NCBI GenBank assembly: GCA_965247685.1
Contig: OZ252021.1
Location: 450,001 to 482,000 of the forward strand
Direction: 5' to 3'
Length of the DNA: 32,000 nucleotides
Origin: Bdellovibrionales bacterium
Lineage (GTDB): Bacteria > Bdellovibrionota > Bdellovibrionia > Bdellovibrionales > UBA1609
Positions 2,839 through 19,740 of the stretch are shown here, piece after piece. A program made the translations under genes and the position numbers. The notes beneath the pieces were generated by a model. That model was not told the DNA's origin and ran no database searches. It saw only the letters and a list, made by a program, of their open reading frames with translations. How positions within the stretch are numbered: position 1 is the first letter of the stretch; each line of letters opens with the position of its first letter.

Positions 2839-3801
2839 CTACAAAAGAAAAATAAGAATCCAAATTAAATAGATAGTGATAGCATGGATCAGTTTCCACT
2901 CCACAGGAGAGAGTAAAAGCAAGGTCACTATTCCGCTTAAAACACCAGCAAAAAATAAACTTATAAATAAATAAGGCTTTCGAAATTCAAACCACTCATA
3001 CCACCAGCTAAGAGTTAAATTTGAAGGCTTTTCATTGATCTTAATTAATAACTTATTTCTTAATAAATATAAAAAATGAACTAAAAAAACACCTGAGAAA
3101 ACAATAGCTATTAAAGGATGAAGAAAACGAAGCTGCAAAATCCAAGGAGAATGAGGACTAAAATCCATCATTAAACTTTCTTTCAAAGAAGAAGAAGGAT
3201 AAGCAATATTAGAAAAAGAAGCGAAAGAGCCTAGAAATACAATCAGTAGAAATGAAATAGAATAAAGTATGATTTTTCTTATTGGGATAACAGAAAAAGG
3301 AGGGAAAGCAAAACGATACTGTAGGAGTTTTTCTTCATTCCAAGTTGAAATAAAAGAATAACGCCAACATAAAACTAAAGAAGCAACAAGAAGCAAACTA
3401 TTGATCAAATGAACATTCAGGACAAAAAGTCTGAGTGTAGAAACATTAAAACCAGTTAAGCCTTTAAGAACAAGGACCGCTCCAATTAAAACTTCAGTGA
3501 GTGTAAAGAGCAAAGACATTCCCGCATAAAATCGAACCTTATCTCTTTTTTCGAAAAACTTCAGACTCCCAATAAACAAAACCAATATAGATAAAGCAAA
3601 GGCTCCAGATGTTATTCGATGAAACCACTCCACCCAAGTTTTATCCTCTTGAGCTTGAGGAACCCATTGATCCTGACACATCGGCCACTGATCACCACAT
3701 CCGTCTCCTGAAAAAGATAAACGAACCCACATTCCCCATAAGATGACAAACAAAGCCAGTAACAATGTGAGAAAAACAAATATATGAAATTTTTTTTTCA
3801 T
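2839..3801 (-). CDS. ctaA: COX15/CtaA-family heme A synthase-like polytopic membrane protein
   Basis: 320 aa, about 8 hydrophobic segments. It has an N-terminal Cys cluster (GDGCGDQWPMC), an E..HR-type motif (VEWFHRITSG) and conserved His residues in later helices (NVHLINS, FLHPLIA). The start shares one base with the lpdA stop (TAATG), suggesting translational coupling. Confidence 0.6.
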   Translation of the reverse strand: MKKKFHIFVFLTLLLALFVILWGMWVRLSFSGDGCGDQWPMCQDQWVPQAQEDKTWVEWFHRITSGAFALSILVLFIGSLKFFEKRDKVRFYAGMSLLFTLTEVLIGAVLVLKGLTGFNVSTLRLFVLNVHLINSLLLVASLVLCWRYSFISTWNEEKLLQYRFAFPPFSVIPIRKIILYSISFLLIVFLGSFASFSNIAYPSSSLKESLMMDFSPHSPWILQLRFLHPLIAIVFSGVFLVHFLYLLRNKLLIKINEKPSNLTLSWWYEWFEFRKPYLFISLFFAGVLSGIVTLLLLSPVEWKLIHAITIYLIWILIFLL

Positions 3802-5183
3802 TACATTTGTCTTGCCCGAGATTGAACAGCAAGGCTCGCCTCCCGCATCGTTTCCGACAATGTAGGATGAGCATGAAAGGATCGTGCGATGTCTTCACTT
3901 GTTGCACTAAATTCCATAGCCACTGCTGCTTCCGCAATCATATCTGACGCTCTTGGACCAATAATATGAACTCCTAAAACTTCGTCTGTGTTCTTATCTG
4001 CTATCACCTTTACGAAACCTTCCGTGCAACCTAACGCTTTCGCTCTACCGCTTGCAGCAAATGGAAAACGACCTGTTTGAATAGATAACCCTTTTTCTTC
4101 ACACTGTTCTTGCGTCCACCCTATTGAAGCCACTTCTGGCCAAGTATAAATAACAGAAGGTAAAGTTTTATAATTCACATGACCATGACCAGAAGAAATA
4201 ATCTCTGCCACAGCCACTCCTTCTTCTTCTGCCTTATGAGCAAGCATTGCTCCTCCTATAACATCTCCAATGGCGTAAATAGAAGGAATAGAAGTTTGGA
4301 ATTTTTCATTTACGGATATAAAGTTTTGTTCGTTGGTGACAACACCTAGTTCTTTTAAACCTAAGTTTCCAATATAAGGAGTACGGCCAATAGATACTAA
4401 GGCCACATCTCCTTTAATTTCTTGAGATTGAGAATCCTGCTCATAAGTCACCAAAGCTGTAGAACCTTTAGATTGCACCTGAGTTACATTCGACTGAAGA
4501 TGAAACTTTAAACCTTGTTGACTAAGAGATTTCAAAAGAGCAGAAGAAATATTTTTATCTAAAGCAGGGCAAAGTCTGGAAGAGTATTCTAACACATGAA
4601 CCTCGGTTCCTAACCTATTCCAAACAGAGCCCATCTCTAAACCAATATATCCACCACCAATCACTATCATCACTTTCGGAACTTTCTTTAAACTCAAAGC
4701 TTCAGTCGAAGAAATAATGGTTTTAGAATCAAAAGGAGCAAAAGGGAGAGTTCGCGGTGCACTTCCTGTAGCAATAAGAATATTTTTTGCCTGAATTGTT
4801 TTTTTATTATCCACTATAATTTCTTGAGAAGATTGAATAGTGGCTGTACCTTCAATTTTTTTAATTTTATTTTTCTTCATCAAGAAATTCACACCATTTG
4901 TCAAATCTTGAACTATTTTATCTTTTCTCTTCATCATTTGAAGAAGATCCAACTTCACATGACCTACATTGATTCCATGAATCGCGCTTTCAGCTAAAGT
5001 AAAGTGATAATGTTCGCTAGAATCCAATAAAGCTTTAGAAGGAATACACCCCACATTGAGACAAGTGCCACCTAAAGTAGATTCCTTTTCTATAATGCAT
5101 ATCTTTAAGCCCAGCTGCGCTGCTCGAATAGCCCCTGTATATCCTCCTGGGCCAGCTCCAATAACTGCTAAATCAAATTCCAT
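3801..5183 (-). CDS. lpdA: Dihydrolipoyl dehydrogenase (E3 component)
   Basis: 460 aa with FAD motif VIGAGPGGY, redox-active disulfide GGTCLNVGCIPSK, NAD motif VIGGGYIGLE and C-terminal HAHPTLSE. Confidence 0.92.
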   Translation of the reverse strand: MEFDLAVIGAGPGGYTGAIRAAQLGLKICIIEKESTLGGTCLNVGCIPSKALLDSSEHYHFTLAESAIHGINVGHVKLDLLQMMKRKDKIVQDLTNGVNFLMKKNKIKKIEGTATIQSSQEIIVDNKKTIQAKNILIATGSAPRTLPFAPFDSKTIISSTEALSLKKVPKVMIVIGGGYIGLEMGSVWNRLGTEVHVLEYSSRLCPALDKNISSALLKSLSQQGLKFHLQSNVTQVQSKGSTALVTYEQDSQSQEIKGDVALVSIGRTPYIGNLGLKELGVVTNEQNFISVNEKFQTSIPSIYAIGDVIGGAMLAHKAEEEGVAVAEIISSGHGHVNYKTLPSVIYTWPEVASIGWTQEQCEEKGLSIQTGRFPFAASGRAKALGCTEGFVKVIADKNTDEVLGVHIIGPRASDMIAEAAVAMEFSATSEDIARSFHAHPTLSETMREASLAVQSRARQM

Positions 5184-5384
5184 GATATTTCTCTCTGATC
5201 AAAGATTGTTATTTTTCATTATAAGCTACAAAACTTTAATCATGGTGTCTAGCTTCTTTTCCTTTAGGTAAAGTGTAAAAATCTTAATGTTTTGTATCAA
5301 ACATGCTGAAAGACAGGCTATTCATACCCCTCCAAAAAACTTTATTCTACAGTTTGTTTTCCGATCAACTATATGAGTGATTTA

Positions 5385-8300
5385 TTATTGGGACAAGCTC
5401 CTCATAATTCCATCACAACTGTTAGGTTTCCCACCTTGTGATTGAATAATCAGTTGAGCCTGCTTATGATCTTGTTCGGCTGCTCTTCTAAACCACTCCA
5501 TAGATTTTTTAGGATCTGGACTGAACCTTTTGCTGCCAGTGTGAAGTAATAGTCCTAGTCTAAATTGAGCCTCAGGGTGACCTTGTTCGGCTGCTTTTTT
5601 AAGCCATCTTTTGACTTCTTTGAAGTCCACAGTAGTTTGTACTCTTTTTTCATCATTGAATATAGTTCCAATCATAAACTGAGCCTCCTTATGACCTTGT
5701 TCGGCTGCTTTTCTAAGCCAATAAAGAGCTTGCTTATCATCTTTTTCCACTCTACCAGGGCCTTGGAGGTGTAATAGACCCGTCATAAACTGGGCGTGAG
5801 GATGACCTTGTTTTGCCGCTTGTTCAAACCGATAAAAAGCATGGTCTGGGAGGGGTTTAACAACACCTATGCTGTTAAGTATAAACTTTCCAAGATTAAA
5901 CTGAGCTTCCGGAAGACCCTTTAAAGACGCTCTCCACATCATCTCGAAAGCTTCCCTTTCCTGTTCTTCTTGAGCATATAATACTCCAAGCTCAAACTCA
6001 GCTTCTAGGTGCTTTTTATTAGCAGCCTTTTTGAACAAATCTTTTGCAAGTTGGAAATTCTGAGGAATTCCAATTCCATGTAAAGAGAACACTCCTAAAG
6101 TAAATTGTGCCTCTGTATAGCCATATTCTGAACCTTTTTTTAAATAAGAAAAAACTAATTTTCTAGAACTTTCAGACTGTCCCACCAATCGCTTAAGGAT
6201 CCTTCTTAAATGAAAACTGCTATTTGGATATTGAGCTTGTGGATTCTTAATATAATTTTTCATATGGTTTTTCAAAAGTTCTCGTTCTTTTTGAATACAA
6301 CGAATATCTTGATTACATAAAGTTCCTAATTTTCCAGAAAACACCCGACTTAAATGATCAGCTGAAGTAAAGTAAATAATGCTGCTAGCTGAATCATAAC
6401 TCATGCCTATATATTCTCCTCTGGCATTTAAAATGGGACTCCCACCCACAGCTTGAAAATTCTTAGAATAATTAAAAATTATTCGATATGCACTCAGCAC
6501 TTCATCTAATTTTACAGGTCTGTTTATACTTGTTATTTGATACATTTCCCTTTGGTTATAACCTATGGAATATAAATAGCCTCTATTCAGAATTTCTCCT
6601 TTTTTTATAATATGTTTTGATTCTTTTTCTGTTTTTAAAAAAGCAACATTTCCATAAAAAGAAACTGCAACTATTTCTCGAACTTTCATTGAAGTACCTT
6701 CATAGAATAAAGTGATGTCACCAGCATAAGAAACATCTTCTACTGTTTCAAAAGTTGTCACAGCCAAATTTGGCTGAATAAAAAACGCTGTTCCTTTAGA
6801 TGAAGGTGTTTCTACTCGATAGATAGCGGGTTTCACTTCTTGAACAGCTCTTTGAGCAAAAGCTGGACGTCCTCTTTGCTCAGTTTCCTTTTCAAACCAG
6901 TTAGTAGCAATTTTAGGGTCTTGCTCTACGTAAGATTTTTCAGTAAGGACCTGAGCCTCAGGGTGACCTTGTTCGGCTGCTTTTTTAAGCCACTTCGTAA
7001 ATGTTAGTAAATTTTTTTCAACCACTATTCCTTCCAGATAGGACATTCCAGTTCTAAATTGAGCTTCCGGATATTTCTGCTTTGCAGATCGAAGTATCCA
7101 CTCAAAAGATTTTTTTAAATCTCTAGGAACTACTGTGCCTTCAGCATAAAAATCTCCAAGTTCAAATTGAGCCTCAGGGTGACCTTGTTCGGCTGCTTGT
7201 CTCATCCAATGTACAGCTTTTTTATGGTCTCTCCTCGCATAATTCAAAATACTCCAATCTTTAGAGGAGTAGGCACCTTGAGTGTAGAACTTGCCAAGAA
7301 CAAACGAAGCCTCCTTATGACCTTGTTCGGCTGCTTGTCTCATCCAATGTACAGTTTTTTCATGGTCTCTCCTCGTATAATTCAAAATACTCCAATCTTT
7401 AGAATCTTCAGAGTAGGCACCTTGAGCGTAGAACTTACCAAGAACAAACGGAGCCTCCTTATGACCTTGTTCGGCTGCTTCTTCCAGCCACTTCGTAAAT
7501 GCTAGCAAACTTTTTTCAACCACTATTCCTTCCAGATAGGACATTCCAGTTCTAAATTGAGCTTCCGGATATTTCTGCTTTGCAGATCGAAGTATCCACT
7601 CAAAAGATTTTTTTAAATCTCTAGGAACTACTGTGCCTTCAGCATAAAAATCTCCAAGTTCAAATTGAGCCTCAGGGTGACCTTGTTCAGCTGCTTGTCT
7701 CATCCAATGTGTAGCTTGTTCATAGTCTCTCCTCGCATAATTCAAAATACTCCAAGCATTAGAATCTTTAGAGTAGGCACCTTGAGTGTAGAACTTGCCA
7801 AGAAGAAACGAAGCCTCCTTATGACCTTGTTCGGCTGCTTGTCTTATCCAATGTACAGCTTTTTTATGGTCTCTCCTCGCATAATTCAAAATACTCCAAT
7901 CTTTAGAATCTTCAGAGTAGGCACCTTGAGCGTAGAACTTACCAAGAACAAACGGAGCCTCCTTATGACCTTGTGTGGTTGCTTCTTCAAGCCACTTCGT
8001 AAATGCTAGCAAACTTTTTTCAACCACTATTCCTTCCAGATAGGACATTCCAGTTCTAAATTGAGCTTCCGGATATTTCTGCTTTGCAGATCGAAGTATC
8101 CACTCAAAAGATTTTCCTAAATCTTTAGGAACTACTGTGCCTTCAGCATAAAAATCTCCTAGTCTAAATTGAGCCTCAGGGTGACCTTGTTCGGCTGCTT
8201 GTCTCATCCAATTTGCAGCTTTTTGATGGTTTCTCTCCAAATAATTCAAAATACTCCAATCTTTAGAATCTTCAGAGTAGGCACCTTGAGTGTAGAACTT

Positions 8301-9212
8301 GCCAAGAAGAAACGGAGCCTCCTTATGACCTTGCATAGCTGCCTGTTCTATCCAACCAATATCAAGAGATAAAAATCCGAAGTGAAATTGTGCCTCTGTG
8401 GATCCTTTATAAGCACCTTTTTTTAAATAGAAAGTAATTAAAGTTCCTAAATGCTTTTTAGCATATTTTAAAACATTTCTTAAATGAAAAATTTTATTTT
8501 GATAGTGAGCTCGTGGATTCCTAATATAATGTTCCATATGATTTTTCAAACGTTTTCGTTCTTTTTCAATACAACCTAAAGCTGTTTCACAAGTGCTTTT
8601 TTTACTTGCGAGAGAAGTTAAAGATTTTGCAGAAATAAAATGGGCATGATTTTTTGTTGAATGATAAACCATTCCCACAAACTTTCCTTTATTATTAATC
8701 ACAGGAGCTCCATTTAAATGGATAATATCCTTAAAAGATTCAAATAACGCTTGATAGTGATTTGTATTAGATAATTCTATTAATGGAAAAGGAAGGTCTT
8801 TTATTTTTATTTGTTGTAACTGCCCCTGATCGTATCCAATGAGCAAAAAAGGAGATTTAAAAACTGCAGAACTTTTTTCTAAAGAAATTCCTAATTTTTG
8901 TTTCGTTTGTAAAATAGCAATGTCTTTTAAAAAAGAAGCTGCAACTACTTTTTGAATTTGAACATCCGAAGAACCTTCACGAGATAAAGTAATTTCATCA
9001 ATATCAGAAACATCTGCGACGTTATGAAAAGTAGTAGCCACTAAATTGTTTCCTATAACAAAAGCAGTTCCCGTTGAAGAGTTTGTTTTTAATTTATAGA
9101 CAGCAGATTGAATTTTTTCATCAAGTTGAATTTTTTTAACATGCTCAGGGAGAACTTCTGCTTGAACTAAAGCTCCTGACATAATCAAAAAAAGTATTTT
9201 AAGAATCTTCAT
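5385..9212 (-). CDS. Secreted modular protein: signal peptide, then two tandem modules of [trypsin-like (probably inactive) domain + CX5C helix + Sel1-repeat array]; about 20 Sel1-like repeats in total
   Basis: 1275-aa ORF. GGAGGGG lies 5 nt upstream of the ATG (9218-9224, minus). N-terminal signal peptide is MKILKILFLIMSGALVQA/EV. Trypsin_2-like domains span about aa 40-185 (nt 8658-9095) and aa 797-945 (nt 6378-6824). Paralogous linkers are CETALGCIEKERKRLKNHMEHYIRNP and CNQDIRCIQKERELLKNHMKNYIKNP. Sel1 signature AAEQGH[PK]EAQF.LG..Y recurs about 13 times (aa ~262-760) and about 7 times (aa ~1022-1256). Confidence 0.8.
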   Translation of the reverse strand: MKILKILFLIMSGALVQAEVLPEHVKKIQLDEKIQSAVYKLKTNSSTGTAFVIGNNLVATTFHNVADVSDIDEITLSREGSSDVQIQKVVAASFLKDIAILQTKQKLGISLEKSSAVFKSPFLLIGYDQGQLQQIKIKDLPFPLIELSNTNHYQALFESFKDIIHLNGAPVINNKGKFVGMVYHSTKNHAHFISAKSLTSLASKKSTCETALGCIEKERKRLKNHMEHYIRNPRAHYQNKIFHLRNVLKYAKKHLGTLITFYLKKGAYKGSTEAQFHFGFLSLDIGWIEQAAMQGHKEAPFLLGKFYTQGAYSEDSKDWSILNYLERNHQKAANWMRQAAEQGHPEAQFRLGDFYAEGTVVPKDLGKSFEWILRSAKQKYPEAQFRTGMSYLEGIVVEKSLLAFTKWLEEATTQGHKEAPFVLGKFYAQGAYSEDSKDWSILNYARRDHKKAVHWIRQAAEQGHKEASFLLGKFYTQGAYSKDSNAWSILNYARRDYEQATHWMRQAAEQGHPEAQFELGDFYAEGTVVPRDLKKSFEWILRSAKQKYPEAQFRTGMSYLEGIVVEKSLLAFTKWLEEAAEQGHKEAPFVLGKFYAQGAYSEDSKDWSILNYTRRDHEKTVHWMRQAAEQGHKEASFVLGKFYTQGAYSSKDWSILNYARRDHKKAVHWMRQAAEQGHPEAQFELGDFYAEGTVVPRDLKKSFEWILRSAKQKYPEAQFRTGMSYLEGIVVEKNLLTFTKWLKKAAEQGHPEAQVLTEKSYVEQDPKIATNWFEKETEQRGRPAFAQRAVQEVKPAIYRVETPSSKGTAFFIQPNLAVTTFETVEDVSYAGDITLFYEGTSMKVREIVAVSFYGNVAFLKTEKESKHIIKKGEILNRGYLYSIGYNQREMYQITSINRPVKLDEVLSAYRIIFNYSKNFQAVGGSPILNARGEYIGMSYDSASSIIYFTSADHLSRVFSGKLGTLCNQDIRCIQKERELLKNHMKNYIKNPQAQYPNSSFHLRRILKRLVGQSESSRKLVFSYLKKGSEYGYTEAQFTLGVFSLHGIGIPQNFQLAKDLFKKAANKKHLEAEFELGVLYAQEEQEREAFEMMWRASLKGLPEAQFNLGKFILNSIGVVKPLPDHAFYRFEQAAKQGHPHAQFMTGLLHLQGPGRVEKDDKQALYWLRKAAEQGHKEAQFMIGTIFNDEKRVQTTVDFKEVKRWLKKAAEQGHPEAQFRLGLLLHTGSKRFSPDPKKSMEWFRRAAEQDHKQAQLIIQSQGGKPNSCDGIMRSLSQ
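6951..8345 (-). repeat. About 2.8 copies of a roughly 500-bp higher-order tandem repeat, each unit encoding 4 Sel1 repeats, with a nested ~130-bp sub-repeat
   Basis: The landmark cacttcgtaaatg recurs at 6991, 7489 and 7993 (periods 498 and 504 bp). It is followed by long stretches that are nearly identical base for base. gagcctcagggtgaccttgttc[g/a]gctgc recurs at about 6953, 7169, 7667 and 8171, and also at about 5567. Periods are multiples of 3 and in frame. Confidence 0.9.
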
Positions 9213-9314: not shown

Positions 9315-10568
9315 TTAAATATCTAATAAAATGCGTGTAGGCTCTTCAATACACTCTTTGACTGCCACTAAAAACCCAACAGATTCTTTTCCATCAACAA
9401 TTCGATGATCGTAAGATAATGCGAGATACATCATTGGACGGATAACAATTTCTCCATTCACAACAACCGGCCGCTGTTCAATTTTATGCATACCTAAAAT
9501 ACCACTTTGAGGGGGATTTAAAATAGGAGTGGAAAGCAAGGAACCAAAAACACCTCCATTACTTATTGTAAAATTTCCTCCCATGAGATCATCGGGTAAA
9601 AGTTTTCCTTCACGAGCTTTTTTTGCATATTCTAAAACTTCAGCCTCTAATTCAGCAATCGATTTTTGATCTGCATATCGAATCACTGGAACAATGAGAC
9701 CTCTTTTCGTACTCACTGCAATACTGACATGACAATGATTAAAATAAACAAGTTCGTCACCCTCTATCTGGGCCCCCACTCGAGGGTGCGCTTTCATACT
9801 TTGAATCACAGCTTTAATAAAAAAGCCCATAAACCCTAACTTCATATTGTATTTTCTTTGAAAGACCTCTTGATAATTTTTTCTTAATTGAATAATGCGA
9901 CTCATATCCACTTCATTAAAAGTGGTGAGAGTTGCAGTGCTCCTTTGAGAAGCTAGCAATCTTTCAGCAATTCTTTTTCGAATCGTTGTCATTTTTTCTT
10001 TGCGCATTTCCACACCAGCGACAGTCGTTATCTTTGGAGACTGAACTGTTTGCTGCGGCATTGAAGGAGGAGAGGGAATAGATGACAAATCAGACATTTG
10101 AAGACGTCCTCCTTTACCTGTGCCCTGCAATGTTGACGGATCAATATTTTTGGTCATCAAAGCATGACGAACGGAAGGAGAGTGACGAGAAGAATCCCAA
10201 GAAGGAAGTTGAGATGTTTTTACAGATTGTGAAGTCTGAGGCTCAGGTTTACTTTCAATGGTTTTAGAGGAAGAAGGAGTAGCTTCCTCTTTTTTTTCTG
10301 CAGGTCGAGAGGTTTGAGGGGCTTTTTTAGAAGTATCAATAATCCCAATCACTTCACCCACAAGAACTTCTTCTCCTTCTTTTTTCAAAATTTCAACCTG
10401 ACCTGCGTTTTCAGCAGGTACTTCCATGGAAGCTTTGTCTGTTTCTAGTAAAACAATAACTTCATCTCGTTGAACAAAATCTCCTGAAGCTTTATTCCAA
10501 GATCCAATAACTGCTGAATTGACAGACTCTCCTACTGAGGGAACTTTAATTTCAATTTTCATAGTCAT
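9315..10568 (-). CDS. sucB: Dihydrolipoyllysine-residue succinyltransferase (2-oxoglutarate dehydrogenase E2)
   Basis: 417 aa with lipoyl domain [12 protein letters not shown], a Pro/Ser/Thr/Gln-rich linker, a peripheral subunit-binding region ([14 protein letters not shown]) and catalytic domain DHRIVDG. Confidence 0.92.
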
Positions 10569-10692: not shown

Positions 10693-13410
10693 TCATAAAA
10701 TCATCTGAGCTAAACAGCGATTCACAAGCTTTTTTTGCTCTTGTTCAAATCCTTGAAAAGAACCATCTGCAGGAGATGCTTTACTTTCACGACCAATGTA
10801 TTCTAGTTTCACATTTTTTTTCCCTAAATCTTTTAAGAATTCTTGAAGTTCAGGCCTCACAAAAGAGTAGGCTCCCATATTTTTAGGTTCTTCTTGAAGC
10901 CAAATAATTTTTTCTAAAGAAGATAACCCATTCAAGTATGGACCTAAAGATTTTCTAGGAAAAGGGTAGATCTGTTCTAGTCGAATAACCATCGTATGAT
11001 CAAGAATGTGATTTTTTTTACTCATTAAATCAAAGTAAATTTTACCTGTACATAAAATAAGACTTTTTATAGGAGTAGAGCTCTTAGATTTTGACACAAG
11101 AACTTCTTTAAAAGATCCTTTTAAAAGTTCGTTCGTATGAGATACCATTTGAGGATGACGAAGAAGAGATTTTGGAGTCATTACAACAAGTGGTTTATAA
11201 AAATCTCTTTTCACCTGTCTTCTGAGTAAATGAAAAAGATTTGCCGGAGATGTAGGGTAGCATACTTGCATATTATTTTGAGCACAAAGCTGTAAAAACC
11301 TTTCCATTCGAGCACTCGAATGTTCAGACCCTTGCCCTTCATAACCATGAGGAAGAAACAATGTTAAAGAACAAGACTGCATCCACTTTTCTTCTCCACT
11401 TGAAATATATTGATCAATGATAATTTGCGCTCCATTGGCAAAATCACCAAATTGAGCTTCCCATATATTAAGGCTTTTGTGATCCGAACAAGAATTTCCA
11501 TATTCAAAACCAAGCACAGCAAATTCAGATAAAGGAGAGTTATAAATACGAAACTCAGACTGCTTTGGGCTGAGCATTGCTAAGGGAGTGTATTCTTTGG
11601 CATTTTGAACATCAAAGTAAGAAGCATGACGATGAGAAAAAGTTCCTCGCTTGCAGTCTTGACCTGATACTCGTACAGGGTGTCCTTCCAAGCAAAGCGT
11701 CCCATACGCTGCTAACTCCGCTAAGCCCCAATCGATGTTGGAAGAATCTACAGATTTTTTTCTATTCTCGATGAGCCTTTTGACTTTAGGGTGAAGGTTT
11801 ATATTTTCCGGAACAGAAGTAAGAGTTTGAAATACTTGATTGAGATCATGAGAACTGGGGGTGGTTTTCACATTTTCTTCGATTTGATCATCAGAAGGCT
11901 TAGGATTGTAAATCCATAAAGGCCCTCTTAAATCACTTTCTTGAATGGGCTCAGGTTTTTTTCTTATCTGATCCAATATACCCTGCAAATAATCTGTATG
12001 TTCTTGAAAGCCTTTTCCTTGATCATCAGTTATTACTTTTTCCTGAATCAATTGTTTTTTATAAATATTCATCAAAGTCGGATGCTGTTTAATTTTACTA
12101 TACATCAAAGGTTGAGTAAAAGAAGGTTCATCCCCTTCGTTATGACCAAATCTTCTGTAGGAGATAAGTTCAATCACAATATCTTGTTGAAACTCTTGGC
12201 GAAATTTCACTGCAATATTTATAGCTTGGATACAACTTGCCACATCGTCTCCATTCACGAGTAAAACTGGAGCTCGAACAGACTTAGATAAGTCCGAAGA
12301 AAAGGGTGTAGATCGACCATCTTTAGAGTTTGTTGTAAATCCAATTTGATTGTTCACAATAATATGAATAGCACCCCCCACAGTATAACCCTTCAGTTGG
12401 GAAAGCTGTAAAGATTCACTCACGACACCCTGACCACAAAAAGAAGCATCTCCATGAATTAATATGGAAAGAGCCTTCTTTCGGGTTTGAGTATCTTTCA
12501 GCATTCTTTGACGAGCACGAGTCACTCCACATATCACAGGAACGATAGACTCCAAATGACTTGGATTAAAACCTAAAAGCACTTGGCAAGAGTGATTGGA
12601 GAAAGTCTTTTTTATACAGGAATACCCAATATGGTATTTCACATCTCCTGTAAAACCTATATCTGAAAAAATTCCGCCTTCAAATTGAGATAAAATAATT
12701 TTTTCATGCTGTTTTGTAAAGTTAGTCATCACATTCAGACGACCACGATGAGACATTCCTAGAATAAATTCTTGAACCCCTATTTGAGCACCTTGATCGA
12801 CCAACTGCTCCAACATAGGAATTAAAATATCTGATCCTTCAATGGAAAATCTTTTAGCTCCTAAAAATCGATTATGTAAAAATTTTTCAAAAGCTTCGAC
12901 TTGAGTTAGTTTTTTTAAAACTTTCTGTTTTAGTTCCACACTCATCTGAAAAGAAGACTGCTCAAAAGCTTGGTAAAACCACTGACGAATTTGAGGAGGA
13001 CACCCTTGAACATTCAACGCTAGTGTGGAGCAGTAAGTTTTTTCCAGATACTGAATCAACTTCCCTAGATTTTGAAAATCTTTATTGAGAGCTGAAAAGA
13101 CCTCAAACTTCTGACCTTCATCCTCTTTTTCTAATCCAAAACGAGAGAGATTAAAAGATTCACCCTGAGGTTTCGCAAGGCCCAAAGGATCTAGACGAGC
13201 TTTAAAGTATCCATTCTCACGATAAAATTGAATCAGTTCATAAATTTGAAGCTCTTTTTTAGAAAAAGAACCTTGATCAAGAACTCGAGCAAAATCAACT
13301 CCGTCAAAAAACAGTTTCCACTCTGGAGAAACAGACTGAGGGCTCGCTTGATATTTAGCAAACAAATCCTCAATATAGTGAATATTAGTTTGATCAATAG
13401 TAGTTTTCAT
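10693..13410 (-). CDS. sucA: 2-oxoglutarate dehydrogenase E1 component
   Basis: 905 aa, the size and layout of SucA. Matching regions include the ThDP-binding region (HGDASFCGQGVV, NNQIGFTT), RRFGHNEGDEP and FGDFANGAQIIIDQ. It sits directly upstream of sucB. Confidence 0.93.
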   Translation of the reverse strand: MKTTIDQTNIHYIEDLFAKYQASPQSVSPEWKLFFDGVDFARVLDQGSFSKKELQIYELIQFYRENGYFKARLDPLGLAKPQGESFNLSRFGLEKEDEGQKFEVFSALNKDFQNLGKLIQYLEKTYCSTLALNVQGCPPQIRQWFYQAFEQSSFQMSVELKQKVLKKLTQVEAFEKFLHNRFLGAKRFSIEGSDILIPMLEQLVDQGAQIGVQEFILGMSHRGRLNVMTNFTKQHEKIILSQFEGGIFSDIGFTGDVKYHIGYSCIKKTFSNHSCQVLLGFNPSHLESIVPVICGVTRARQRMLKDTQTRKKALSILIHGDASFCGQGVVSESLQLSQLKGYTVGGAIHIIVNNQIGFTTNSKDGRSTPFSSDLSKSVRAPVLLVNGDDVASCIQAINIAVKFRQEFQQDIVIELISYRRFGHNEGDEPSFTQPLMYSKIKQHPTLMNIYKKQLIQEKVITDDQGKGFQEHTDYLQGILDQIRKKPEPIQESDLRGPLWIYNPKPSDDQIEENVKTTPSSHDLNQVFQTLTSVPENINLHPKVKRLIENRKKSVDSSNIDWGLAELAAYGTLCLEGHPVRVSGQDCKRGTFSHRHASYFDVQNAKEYTPLAMLSPKQSEFRIYNSPLSEFAVLGFEYGNSCSDHKSLNIWEAQFGDFANGAQIIIDQYISSGEEKWMQSCSLTLFLPHGYEGQGSEHSSARMERFLQLCAQNNMQVCYPTSPANLFHLLRRQVKRDFYKPLVVMTPKSLLRHPQMVSHTNELLKGSFKEVLVSKSKSSTPIKSLILCTGKIYFDLMSKKNHILDHTMVIRLEQIYPFPRKSLGPYLNGLSSLEKIIWLQEEPKNMGAYSFVRPELQEFLKDLGKKNVKLEYIGRESKASPADGSFQGFEQEQKKLVNRCLAQMIL

Positions 13411-13754: not shown

Positions 13755-14753
13755 ATGTTATTAGATCCAGGGTTTGGGCTTACGCTAAGACCAATGAAGT
13801 ATCCCGTATTCTTTGAGATGTATAAAAATGCTATTAAAAATACATGGACTGTGGATGAAGTAGATTTTAGCTCAGACGTGATTGATTTAAAAACGAAACT
13901 ATCTTCTAGTGAAACTTTTTTGATTAAAAGATTGGTTGCTTTTTTCGCAACAGGGGACACCATTGTTGGGAATAATCTTGTTTTAAACCTTTATAAGCAT
14001 ATCAATTCACCTGAAGCTCGCATGTATTTAGGTCGTCAGCTTTATGAGGAAATGCTTCATGTACAGTTTTACCTCACTTTATTGGATACATACATCCCTA
14101 ATCATGATGAACGAGCGGATGCTTTTGTAGCTATTGAAAGTATTCCTTCTATCAAGAAAAAAGGAGATTTCAGCTTCAAATGGATGGATTCTGTTGAAAA
14201 ATTAGAAAGGCTTGAAACTCAAGATGACCGCCGCCGTTTTCTTATGAACCTTATTTGTTTTGCGGGAACTATTGAAGGGCTTTTCTTTTTTGCAGCTTTT
14301 GCCTACGTATATTTCCTAAGGTCTAAAGGGTTACTCAATGGTCTTGCGACAGGGACTAATTGGGTCTTTAGAGATGAAAGCTGCCACATTGACTTTGCCT
14401 TTCAAGCGATGGATATCATCGTGCGAGAAGAACCTTCCCTTATGCAGTCCAATATGAAAAGTATGATTATTGCCATGTTTAAAGAAGCTATTGACTGCGA
14501 GCTGACCTTTGCAGACGAGATTCTCTCGCAAGGGATGGCAGGAATGAGTCTCAGAGATATGAAAACTTATCTTCAATACATTACAGATTTAAGATTAGAA
14601 AGAATTGGCATTTCACCTCAATTTAGAGTGAGGAATCCTTTTCACTTTATGGATCTACAAGATACTCAAGAGCTCACTAACTTTTTTGAAAGAAGAGTTT
14701 CTGCTTATCAAACAGGGATTAAGGGTGAAGTTGCTTTCGACGAAACTTTTTAA
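13755..14753 (+). CDS. nrdB: Class I ribonucleotide reductase small (beta/R2) subunit
   Basis: 332 aa with di-iron ligand motifs (FFATGD, EEMLH, EGLFFF, RDESCH). A Tyr lies four residues after the His (HVQFY), which is the radical position. The acidic C-terminal tail is EVAFDETF. No nrdA in the window. Confidence 0.9.
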   Translation: MLLDPGFGLTLRPMKYPVFFEMYKNAIKNTWTVDEVDFSSDVIDLKTKLSSSETFLIKRLVAFFATGDTIVGNNLVLNLYKHINSPEARMYLGRQLYEEMLHVQFYLTLLDTYIPNHDERADAFVAIESIPSIKKKGDFSFKWMDSVEKLERLETQDDRRRFLMNLICFAGTIEGLFFFAAFAYVYFLRSKGLLNGLATGTNWVFRDESCHIDFAFQAMDIIVREEPSLMQSNMKSMIIAMFKEAIDCELTFADEILSQGMAGMSLRDMKTYLQYITDLRLERIGISPQFRVRNPFHFMDLQDTQELTNFFERRVSAYQTGIKGEVAFDETF

Positions 14754-17739: not shown

Positions 17740-19485
17740 ATGAGAAATAAACTGTTACTTATTCTACTATTCTTACCATTTGTTTCTTTATCTGAAGAAC
17801 CATGTTCTAATGACGAACTTATTAGACACAGAAAAGACCGTCAAACAAAGTTAACTGAAATGAGAAACCTTAAAATTGAAGCAATGGAAGCAGAAGAAGA
17901 TGATCGTGAAGAGGATCGTGAAGAGAATCCTTTAGATAAAGTACGAGAGTTATTAGATGAATGTATAGATTTTGAAACACAAATGAATGACTGTCGAGTC
18001 GACATAGCCAATCAAGGAGAAGGAGAACCAATATCTGTTGATTTGAGCAAGCAATGTCAAAATACGTATGACGAAATTAAGGATGAACTAGAAACAAGAG
18101 AAGAAAGGTTAATAAAAGAGGAAGAAAGAAAAACAGAGCAAGATCAAGCAGAAAGGGAAGCTATAGAAAAAAAACAGCAATTACTTCAAGAAAGATGCAA
18201 TGATGCTTATAATGAAGCCAAAAGAGAAAGGGACCAAATTGAAAAAAACGTTCAACGATTACAACAAGAGCTTGATAAAGTAGAGGATGCTATTTTAAAA
18301 GCCAATTCTGCGATCGCCACATCCGAAGATCGATTTAGGCAAAGCTTATTAAACAAAAAACAACAATACCGAAAAGAAACAGACCGAAAAGAAACTGAAA
18401 TAAGAGAACGTAAATTCGAGAAGAAGGAAAAAGAAAGACAGGCTATTAAAGACATTAGAAAATTAGAACAGATTAAAATAGAATTAGTCCATGCTCTTGG
18501 TCAAGCAGGAGAGGTTATACGAAATATCTGCTCCGATCGATTCCAAAAATATGTCGATACTTCAAGGGATTGCCACAATCTTGCCCTTCAAAATACTAAA
18601 AAAGAAAGGGATAATTTTTTTACAAAAATTGAATCAGGAGAATACCAAGCAGCTAGCCTTTCCACTCTTTTTAGCTTCGACCGTAAAAATACAATCAAAC
18701 GATGGAGAAATCGAATCCAAGAATTACATCAAGAATGTTATATAAACAGAGTAGGAGAAAATTTACCTACTAAAGGTCAAAAGTTAAAAGTACAAGTTTC
18801 TTGTGATGTAGCCACATTAGAAAAAAGAAAAGAAGATTGTGAGAAAATTCAAGATAACAGCCTTTTATGCCCTCAAAGTCCTATGGCAATAGGAATTGAG
18901 TTGGAAACTTTAAATAAACTTAAAAGTCAGAAGAAACTCTTAGAAACTACAAACAGGAGACTTAAGGATGCTGAAGAAAATTTAACACTCGGAAATGAAG
19001 AAATAATAGCTCAAAAATCAGAAATAGAAAAAAGAATCAAACAGGCTGAAAGACAATTTGAAAAGCTAAAGGAAAAACGTGACGAAGAAATTCAATTTGA
19101 AAACAATAAACTCACTAAAGCTCGTCATGACAATAGAAATAAAATTTTAAACCTAGAAAAAAAGAAAATAAGACTCCTTTCACAAGATCCTACAAGACAC
19201 TTTGAAGAAACTATATGGACTGCAAAATCTGCCTGTTGCACCCAGCTTCCAACTACTACTACTGCTTCATCAGAACACCAAGAATTTCAAACAGTGTTAG
19301 CAGGGCTCCAACAATTCAGTCAATCCGAATGCCAATATCTGAAAGCATACCTCAATGAGGCTTCCCGTTGGCAATTTATCTCAGTTCAAAATTTAGACCA
19401 CCTAAATTTAGACCACCTAACTTTAGACCGCCTAAAAGAAACCTCAGAAAAAATACCTAAACGACGAGATTCCCGTGGAATATAG
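17740..19485 (+). CDS. Secreted, Glu/Lys/Arg-rich coiled-coil protein with 14 Cys; no recognisable family
   Basis: 581-aa ORF with signal peptide MRNKLLLILLFLPFVSLS/EE. It has long heptad-like charged stretches, an even Cys count and a Thr-rich patch (CCTQLPTTTTASS). The C-terminus carries an NLDHL x3 repeat and the gene ends in a double stop TAGTAG. Confidence 0.7.
   Translation: MRNKLLLILLFLPFVSLSEEPCSNDELIRHRKDRQTKLTEMRNLKIEAMEAEEDDREEDREENPLDKVRELLDECIDFETQMNDCRVDIANQGEGEPISVDLSKQCQNTYDEIKDELETREERLIKEEERKTEQDQAEREAIEKKQQLLQERCNDAYNEAKRERDQIEKNVQRLQQELDKVEDAILKANSAIATSEDRFRQSLLNKKQQYRKETDRKETEIRERKFEKKEKERQAIKDIRKLEQIKIELVHALGQAGEVIRNICSDRFQKYVDTSRDCHNLALQNTKKERDNFFTKIESGEYQAASLSTLFSFDRKNTIKRWRNRIQELHQECYINRVGENLPTKGQKLKVQVSCDVATLEKRKEDCEKIQDNSLLCPQSPMAIGIELETLNKLKSQKKLLETTNRRLKDAEENLTLGNEEIIAQKSEIEKRIKQAERQFEKLKEKRDEEIQFENNKLTKARHDNRNKILNLEKKKIRLLSQDPTRHFEETIWTAKSACCTQLPTTTTASSEHQEFQTVLAGLQQFSQSECQYLKAYLNEASRWQFISVQNLDHLNLDHLTLDRLKETSEKIPKRRDSRGI
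17902..17925 (+). repeat. Perfect 12-bp in-frame tandem duplication (gatcgtgaagag x2; DREE-DREE)
   Basis: Read directly from the sequence inside the coiled-coil gene. Confidence 0.9.
18368..18397 (+). repeat. 15-bp in-frame tandem duplication (accgaaaagaaac[ag/tg] x2; RKETD-RKETE)
   Basis: 14/15 identity between adjacent units inside the coiled-coil gene. Confidence 0.9.
19391..19435 (+). repeat. 15-bp in-frame tandem repeat x3 (atttagaccacctaa; NLDHL-NLDHL-TLDRL)
   Basis: Units at 19391-19405, 19406-19420 (identical) and 19421-19435 (2 mismatches), at the 3' end of the coiled-coil gene. Confidence 0.9.
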
Positions 19486-19543
19486 TAGAATATTTTAAGA
19501 ACAAAACGTAAAAGAATATAGTGTGTAAAAAGGCCTGCGAAGA

Positions 19544-19573
19544 GGGAAGGTTTTCAAGAAAATCCCGTTTTTA
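19544..19573 (+). terminator. Candidate weak intrinsic terminator downstream of the coiled-coil gene
   Basis: GGGA-agg-TTTT-caag-AAAA-TCCC hairpin followed by GTTTTTA. The stem is A/T-rich and bulged. Confidence 0.3.
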
Positions 19574-19653
19574 TACAGGTGGGTGTAACAGTGACAACTT
19601 TAGGCTTCCTGCTGTTAAAAAACACAGGCTTGCACACCATCGCCAGAGGCTAC

Positions 19654-19685
19654 TCCCTACTTTTTGATTGTAGGGATTTCTTTCC
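19654..19685 (+). terminator. Second hairpin plus T-rich tail (terminator-like; could end a short transcript)
   Basis: tccctac (19654-19660) / gtaggga (19670-19676), 9-nt loop, followed by tttctttcc. Confidence 0.3.
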
Positions 19686-19740
19686 AACCTCACCCCAAGC
19701 AAGCTTCCTGAGATATAACACGAAAATAGAAAATATAAAA

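Follow-up and report, generated by a model that had tools for sequence, protein, structure and literature searches.

A putative in-frame fusion of two pseudo-protease–Sel1 paralogues encoded between sucB and lpdA in a small-genome relative of the Bdellovibrionales

Domain organization of the gene between sucB and lpdA

The stretch of DNA analyzed here, the window, comprises 32,000 nucleotides (nt) of a Bdellovibrionales bacterium (assembly GCA_965247685.1, contig OZ252021.1, positions 450,001 to 482,000), and the gene of interest is a single ATG-initiated open reading frame (ORF) of 3828 nt on the minus strand (5385..9212), located between sucB and lpdA and encoding a protein of 1275 amino acids (aa). 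This gene is an in-frame fusion of two old tandem paralogues, denoted A and B, each of which is still a separate gene in sister genomes. A preliminary description, made from the sequence alone, had placed a same-orientation 3.8-kb gene among minus-strand sucA, sucB, lpdA and ctaA, and the Pfam and NCBIfam assignments bear this out. A frame of 1275 open codons at a G+C content (GC) of 36% would not arise by chance because its probability is ∼1e-40, given the ∼0.07 stops per codon estimated from the base composition of the window. The strong Shine-Dalgarno sequence and the AT-rich spacers of ∼100 and ∼200 bp reported for the gene were likewise found, with GGAGGGG located 5 nt from the ATG, a spacer of 102 bp (GC 0.25) following sucB, and one of 201 bp (GC 0.30) preceding lpdA. 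The features of the gene, all on the minus strand, are the following.

5385..9212, minus: whole coding sequence of the A-B fusion protein (signal peptide, module A, 13 Sel1 repeats, linker, module B, 7 Sel1 repeats, Cys tail)
9224-9218, minus: Shine-Dalgarno sequence GGAGGGG, 5 nt before the ATG at 9212-9210
9159..9212, minus: predicted Sec-type signal peptide, aa 1-18 (MKILKILFLIMSGALVQA), with n-, h- and c-regions, followed by EV
8598..9122, minus: module 1 (A-type), chymotrypsin-fold domain, aa ∼31-205, from Pfam, profile alignment and structure match
8427..8591, minus: C208-x5-C214 and conserved helices (CIEKERKRLKNHMEHYIRNP...FHLR), aa 208-262
6870..8402, minus: Sel1 array 1, 13 repeats, aa 271-781
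6834..6965, minus: fusion junction/linker, aa 750-793, a degenerate last A repeat and then RPAFAQ
6324..6833, minus: module 2 (B-type), chymotrypsin-fold domain, aa 794-963, from homology to module 1 and the model
6138..6317, minus: C966-x5-C972 and conserved helices of module 2, aa 966-1025
5439..6119, minus: Sel1 array 2, ∼7 repeats, aa 1032-1258, modelled as an alpha/alpha solenoid
5385..5438, minus: C-terminal tail with a conserved Cys motif (..NSCDGIMRSLSQ, then the stop codon), common to the A and B orthologues and to part of the wider family

The trypsin-like and Sel1 domains proposed previously were both recovered by profile searches, with a Pfam Trypsin_2 (PF13365) match at aa 48-181 scoring 41.5 bits against a cutoff of 27.6 and a Pfam Sel1 (PF08238) match scoring 342.8 bits (E 1e-105). 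Module 2 gets no Trypsin_2 call in the Pfam scan and was assigned by homology, the two protease-like modules (aa ∼19-270 and 781-1031) being 38% identical over 257 aa (E 9e-57), together with structure prediction. An AlphaFold model of aa 781-1275, built from a 59-sequence alignment (predicted local distance difference test score [pLDDT] 91.8; predicted template modelling score 0.88), consists of a beta-barrel protease fold that leads through a short hairpin at the Cys pair into an unbroken helical solenoid. The module 2 half of this model matches the S1 proteases Rv3671c, HtrA and DegS, and the Sel1 half matches 6OK3, LceB, c5321, LpnE and HcpC (6OK3, 8SXQ, 4BWR, 6DEH and 1OUV; E 1e-10 to 1e-16); none of the structural matches is a solved structure that spans both halves. 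The model of module 1, derived from a shallow alignment, is mediocre (pLDDT 66.9) and still matches chymotrypsin-fold proteins, the first being the non-catalytic S1C domain of RsgI9 (7SJY), followed by MarP, HtrA and exfoliative toxins. Both modules can be assigned to the peptidase S1/PA-clan fold, module 1 by its score above the cutoff and module 2 by homology and the model. The arrays belong to the Sel1 family, given their tandem profile-matching repeats and an all-helical model that matches solved Sel1 proteins. A signature count of repeat starts yields 13 + 7 = 20 repeats, in agreement with the earlier estimates of ∼13 and ∼7. Repeats 2-12 of array 1 form three super-repeats of ∼500 bp with 89-97% nucleotide identity, a recent, lineage-specific expansion.

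The two modules also share a 99-nt island (8477-8575 versus 6203-6301, minus-strand coding) in the helix that follows the CX5C motif. The two copies are 86-87% identical, and at third codon positions 91% identical, compared with 61% for the modules as a whole; no equivalent island was found in the A versus B comparisons of the sister genomes. This pattern suggests intragenic gene conversion between the modules in the window lineage, which would be part of the reason for the conserved helix highlighted in the preliminary description.

The earlier reading of a cleavable-looking signal peptide is supported by recognizable n-, h- and c-regions, and the peptide has no lipobox Cys; homologues A and B likewise begin with hydrophobic leaders. 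In the public annotation (P0002, 1265 aa), the protein begins at Met11 (window 9183-9212), so that most of the signal peptide is lost. The GGAGGGG 5 nt upstream and the leaders of the homologues support Met1, not Met11, as the likely true start. At the other end of the protein, the tail fits the consensus C-x-x-[AILV]-[FM]-[KR], found in the fusion gene and in the A and B genes of the related contigs L001 and L082-L084 (SCDGIMR, SCETAMK, SCESAFK, LCGKIFN). Of the 150 best matches of the wider family, 45 have a Cys among their final 16 residues, and the tails of some of these are nearly identical (RCLKIFK, KCRALFQ).

Profile alignment with staphylococcal SplD/SplE defined the catalytic triad columns, whose residues were then compared among 160 domains of those 150 best family matches and in the orthologues of A and B.

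Module 1: H63 / D97 / N167, nucleophile Ser missing
Module 2: E822 / N855 / G923, all three catalytic residues lost
A orthologues: S-N-S, H-D-S, Y-D-N, N-D-S
B orthologues: E-N-V, D-D-T, D-D-T
Wider family: H-D-S in 128 of 160 domains

In the conserved columns, both modules fall short of a full His-Asp-Ser triad. These residues rule out a canonical serine protease, and both modules are predicted pseudo-proteases; the term trypsin-like used in the preliminary description fits the fold, but pseudo-protease is the appropriate label. An active secreted serine protease, in which His63 and Asp97 of module 1 would act with a non-canonical or displaced nucleophile while the Sel1 arrays recruit substrates, as they presumably do in most of the family, where the triad is intact, is quite unlikely. 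Such activity would agree with the His and Asp kept in module 1, the Trypsin_2 score above the Pfam cutoff, the H-D-S triad of orthologue A82, and the prevalence of H-D-S in the family. However, Asn167 (module 1) and Gly923 (module 2) stand in the nucleophile column, module 2 lacks the His and Asp as well, and the triad columns vary in almost every orthologue, a pattern of released constraint and not of an alternative conserved mechanism. The clade has thus been released from constraint on catalysis.

A tandem pair of paralogues and its fusion

The contigs that carry the closest matches share a common neighbourhood, namely maf, lgt, nrdB, sucA, sucB, a variable slot, lpdA, ctaA, ddl, murB and nrdA. 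In L082, L083 and L084, the slot between sucB and lpdA holds two separate genes, A (504, 513 and 488 aa, respectively) and B (508, 501 and 508 aa), joined by an 8-bp or 2-bp spacer or a 4-bp overlap. Each of these genes encodes its own hydrophobic leader and C-terminal Cys tail, and the spacer between B and lpdA is 54-63 bp, versus 201 bp in the window. L001 carries A only (464 aa), followed by 405 bp. No relic of B is detectable in this gap, nor in the 201-bp spacer of the window.

In a bootstrapped neighbour-joining tree of the modules, window module 1 clusters with A (bootstrap 100), where A01 is its sister (95.5), and window module 2 clusters with B (bootstrap 98); module 2 is 46-47% identical to B versus 30-34% identical to A. 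Concatenated SucA, SucB and LpdA are 78-91% identical among the five genomes (the window, L001, L082, L083 and L084), and in a neighbour-joining tree of these proteins, computed without bootstrap, the window groups with L082 and L001, and L083 and L084 are sisters. Given this grouping, the two-gene state is ancestral and the single gene a derived fusion; the A-only state of L001 is likewise a derived loss of B. The architecture repeated twice in the preliminary description therefore stands as two homologous modules, but its origin is a fusion of A and B and not a duplication within one gene.

At the position of the junction, the sister genomes have the Cys tail of A, a stop codon, the short spacer or overlap and the signal peptide of B. 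In the window, the A copy of the Cys tail is lost and the hydrophobic core of the B leader is gone; an AFAQ sequence that resembles the cleavage region of B remains. Neither an A tail nor a B signal peptide is hidden in the other frames of the junction, both of which are full of stops, and this argues against a simple insertion or deletion (indel) artefact.

An assembly or sequencing artefact, with two genes A and B in reality, was nevertheless weighed as an explanation of the 1275-aa frame. All three sister genomes with both modules have two genes, and the ∼500-bp repeats of array 1, at 89-97% identity, are hard to assemble. The exact product is absent from the contig index, in which look-ups of the window protein and of P0002 returned no contig; the junction peptide was not detected on any further contig in a metagenome scan, and the fusion is known from one assembly. 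However, an indel would leave the Cys tail of A and the leader of B readable, and no frame contains either one; the high-identity super-repeats do not include the junction; and two-module proteins arose independently elsewhere in the family (P0006, P0008 and P0009). An artefact is accordingly considered very unlikely, and an in-frame A-B fusion is retained as the reading of this gene.

Insertion, selection and the wider family

The genes that flank the fusion gene, and those further out in the window, are the following.

9315..10568, minus: sucB (E2), upstream neighbour, from Pfam/NCBIfam
3801..5183, minus: lpdA (E3), downstream neighbour, from Pfam/NCBIfam
10693-13410, minus: sucA, from Pfam/NCBIfam
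2839-3801, minus: ctaA, from Pfam/NCBIfam
1951-2805, minus: Dam-type N6-adenine methyltransferase, adjoining ctaA, from Pfam/NCBIfam
13755-14753, plus: nrdB, from Pfam/NCBIfam

The nearest genomes in the GTDB species set are Bdellovibrionales metagenome-assembled genomes (MAGs), several of them assembled as 1.3-2.3 Mb chromosomes, which are only ∼53-56% identical to the five-genome clade in SucA, SucB and LpdA. In these MAGs, the gap between sucB and lpdA is ∼10-140 bp in most loci and 362 bp in L005, and ctaA is often next. Because sucB adjoins lpdA in this outgroup, the A/B pair was added to an ancestral sucA-sucB-lpdA-ctaA cluster before the five genomes diverged. The suspicion that the gene is an insertion in the sucB-lpdA interval was thus upheld by comparison of related genomes; the alternative considered then, a conserved gene order, holds within the clade, but the outgroup MAGs lack the gene. 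The insertion is old because its composition matches that of its neighbours: the fusion gene has a GC of 0.365 and a third-codon-position GC (GC3) of 0.243, indistinguishable from the GC3 of 0.246-0.268 of the neighbours. Recent horizontal transfer was rejected on the same GC3 values, and no trace of a mobile element was seen at the locus.

The source lineage, with contigs of up to 1.1-1.4 Mb, is a seemingly undescribed small-genome clade related to the Bdellovibrionales. It keeps murB, ddl and PBP1a for peptidoglycan synthesis, sucA, sucB and lpdA, and haem A synthase.

Both genes evolve rapidly under constraint. Between L083 and L084, the ratio of nonsynonymous to synonymous substitution rates (dN/dS) is 0.39 for A and 0.15 for B, compared with 0.065-0.11 for sucA, sucB and lpdA, all of these ratios being approximate given that dS between the compared genomes is 0.5-1.1, near saturation. 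The A orthologues are 32-55% identical, versus 78-91% for the housekeeping proteins. Thus, A and B are kept by purifying selection and yet are fast-evolving, A above all.

These rates bear on two further explanations. In the first, the gene would be decaying and functionless, left over from a once active protease pair as the genome shrinks. The lost triads, the outright disappearance of B from L001 without a detectable remnant and the rapid evolution of the A orthologues all point in this direction; conversely, all 1275 codons remain open in spite of the AT-rich genome, the sister genomes have dN/dS values well under 1, the CX5C and helix motifs are conserved, and the Sel1 array grew recently and is not eroding. 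Decay is highly improbable in view of these signs of maintenance. In the second, the protein would serve the 2-oxoglutarate dehydrogenase complex, for example in its assembly, tethering or regulation. The sucB-lpdA position is conserved in five genomes, and the genes share a strand and short spacers with no terminator-like site, but the signal peptide and Cys pair point to export, whereas the dehydrogenase is cytoplasmic. Furthermore, relatives outside the clade have sucB-lpdA without the fusion gene, family members elsewhere occur in unrelated contexts (for example, the five-gene array described below), and the suc and lpd genes are outpaced 3-6 times by the gene in their rate of evolution. 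No E1, E2 or E3 domain was found in the fusion protein by Pfam or NCBIfam, and a link to the dehydrogenase is very unlikely.

The wider family was delineated by profile searches. A word-index search with module 1 returned a single homologue (P0001), and an exhaustive HMMER search with a three-module profile returned 439 cluster representatives at E ≤ 1e-3, including 102 at E ≤ 1e-10. Among the top 100 profile matches, 95 contain Trypsin_2 and 84 contain Sel1. The Cys-Cys pair columns are kept in most family matches, and an N-terminal hydrophobic run is present in 102 of the 150 best ones. The window protein belongs to this exported Trypsin_2-CxnC-Sel1 family, sharing the leader, the S1 domain, the Cys pair and the C-terminal Sel1 repeats. 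The architecture, which the preliminary description did not recognize as a described one, is therefore not new: Tryp-(Sel1)6 was tabulated, with function indeterminate, in a 2008 survey that lists YP_374752.1 of Pelodictyon luteolum (PMC2605481). Literature searches yielded no characterized trypsin-like/Sel1 protein, the Pfam and NCBIfam scans returned no family specific to the Trypsin_2-Sel1 architecture, and no named member was found among the family clusters. A large-database search with a full-length profile (A4) was dominated by Sel1-only proteins and gave generic names only, such as "TPR repeat protein", "SEL1-like repeat protein" and "uncharacterized protein". The Trypsin_2-Sel1 architecture is thus widespread and known, yet uncharacterized.

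In the two-module proteins P0006, P0008 and P0009, the modules of each protein are mutual closest relatives (bootstrap 98.5-100), which indicates that doubling of the module arose independently several times. A tandem array of five Trypsin_2(-Sel1) genes was observed in L085 (6001-14183; ENA ERZ25071928 contig_1), directly downstream of an SLT (lytic transglycosylase) domain gene. Four of the genes contain Sel1 repeats, the last encodes a protease domain only, and the two-module P0008 heads the array. The family seems prone to tandem amplification and subsequent fusion.

Several other features of the window were recorded. A second GGAGGGG followed by an ATG is located in the spacer between the fusion gene and lpdA (∼5290-5345, minus strand), where it opens a 13-codon mini-ORF (MNSLSFSMFDTKH, then a stop codon) that could be a chance occurrence or a remnant of a former gene start. 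The Dam-family methyltransferase gene (1951-2805, minus) recurs at the equivalent position in L084; L001, L082 and L083 lack it, so its presence varies among members of the clade. A 6S RNA (SsrS) is encoded at 19527-19709 on the minus strand (Rfam RF00013, 62.5 bits versus a gathering score of 46.4). A 581-aa ORF at 17740-19485 on the plus strand has a signal-peptide-like N-terminus and a long Glu/Lys-rich, coiled-coil-like sequence, has no match in Pfam or PADLOC, and sits where the AT skew is unusually high (0.32-0.36); L001 and L084 likewise have ORFs without a Pfam match (591 and 754 aa) on this lgt/maf side of the cluster.

Possible function and comparison with known systems

The product of the A-B fusion is, on balance, probably an exported, non-catalytic binding or adaptor scaffold that owes its expression to the suc-lpd cluster. 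The pair descends from a widespread secreted S1 protease-Sel1 family and was inserted between sucB and lpdA in the ancestor of the small-genome clade, where the catalytic triads decayed while the fold stayed under purifying selection. Loss of the A tail and of the hydrophobic core of the B leader would cause both modules to be exported via the signal peptide of A, as one bivalent protein in the periplasm or at the cell surface, and the two dead protease clefts, together with the surface of the 20 Sel1 repeats, could hold peptide or protein ligands. The position in the suc-lpd cluster would provide constitutive co-expression, with no role in 2-oxoglutarate dehydrogenase. Export is made plausible by the signal peptide and the conserved Cys pairs, which are typical of oxidizing compartments. 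The conserved adjacency of A and B and the logic of fusion point to cooperation between them, and the shared strand and lack of a terminator-like hairpin in either spacer are consistent with transcription together with the suc-lpd genes; the binding function, in turn, is what we infer.

Some observations weigh against this reading, in addition to the occurrence of the fusion in a single assembly. Module 1 retains His63 and Asp97 and orthologue A82 has a full triad, so catalysis may not have been lost throughout the clade. The signal peptide was called by eye with a rule of thumb and not by a predictor. The promoter and terminator scan gave counts at or below those of shuffled sequence and is thus uninformative. 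The near-saturated dS belongs among these points as well.

A more ambitious version of the proposal, which we regard as speculative and on the whole unlikely, is that A and B form a fast-evolving, exported pseudo-protease receptor system of the clade that seizes a surface protein of a host or prey. Fusion would then have made an A-B heterodimer permanent and tripled the Sel1 surface, with production tied to respiratory metabolism, and the wider Trypsin_2-CxnC-Sel1 family, with its Cys-x3-Phe tail, would represent a new class of periplasmic proteases and pseudoproteases that are stapled by disulfides and form dimers. An anti-phage protease effector (Avs1b or RT-Protease) was rejected: the PADLOC matches (RT-Protease_XI, E 1.5e-12; Avs1b, E 9e-4) reflect generic protease-domain similarity only, and the protein has a signal peptide and no reverse transcriptase or NTPase domain.

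A single syntenic slot in five genomes, with two genes, a fused gene or one gene lost, provides a clean natural series, in which an enzyme fold may be followed as it turns into a binding module. The fusion of A and B would be "Rosetta stone" evidence of cooperation between paralogues and opens the way to tests in a large exported protease-Sel1 family in which no member has been characterized. Because contact with eukaryotic or prey cells is a frequent role of Sel1 proteins, the fusion protein is a candidate interaction factor of this uncultured small-genome lineage. The view of the tricarboxylic acid cycle gene cluster is unchanged, and the position of the gene is best read as an old, tolerated insertion.

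Among characterized proteins, HtrA/DegP/DegS and MarP (Rv3671c) have the same fold, with Foldseek E values of 1e-8 to 1e-9 for both modules and a weak NCBIfam match to MarP. These proteases have an intact triad and PDZ or transmembrane regions, whereas the window protein has no complete triad and Sel1 repeats instead; with no PDZ match in Pfam and an incomplete triad, it does not belong to the HtrA/DegP (S1C) group. The best structural match of module 1 is the S1C-like domain of RsgI9 from Clostridium thermocellum (7SJY; Foldseek E 2.8e-10), which is also the second-ranked profile match (E 0.0027) and has been described as a protease-like, cellulose-binding domain (PMC12203970). The likeness lies in the reuse of the chymotrypsin fold as an extracytoplasmic, non-catalytic binder; RsgI9 differs in being a membrane anti-sigma factor with an NTF2 domain, ∼20% identical and without Sel1 repeats or the Cys-Cys helix.

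Sel1 proteins such as Legionella EnhC, LpnE and LceB, Helicobacter HcpC, E. coli c5321 and the Oxalobacter Sel1 proteins are likewise exported alpha/alpha solenoids with repeats of 36-48 aa, but they lack a protease-like domain and resemble the window protein at the repeat level only (22-28% identity). The window protein is comparable in size to EnhC; its two protease-like modules, and a similarity confined to the repeats, set it apart from the all-Sel1, Slt-binding orthologues of EnhC.

The closest counterparts are the Trypsin_2-Cys-x(5-7)-Cys-Sel1 proteins, which have the same leader, S1 domain, Cys pair and Sel1 solenoid, and among which tandem arrays and two-module forms recur. Most of them are single-module proteins of 400-550 aa with an H-D-S triad, whereas the window protein has 1275 aa, two broken triads and a 13-repeat array. 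What is new here is, thus, a lineage-specific form, fused, catalytically dead and repeat-expanded, of a widespread and uncharacterized family.

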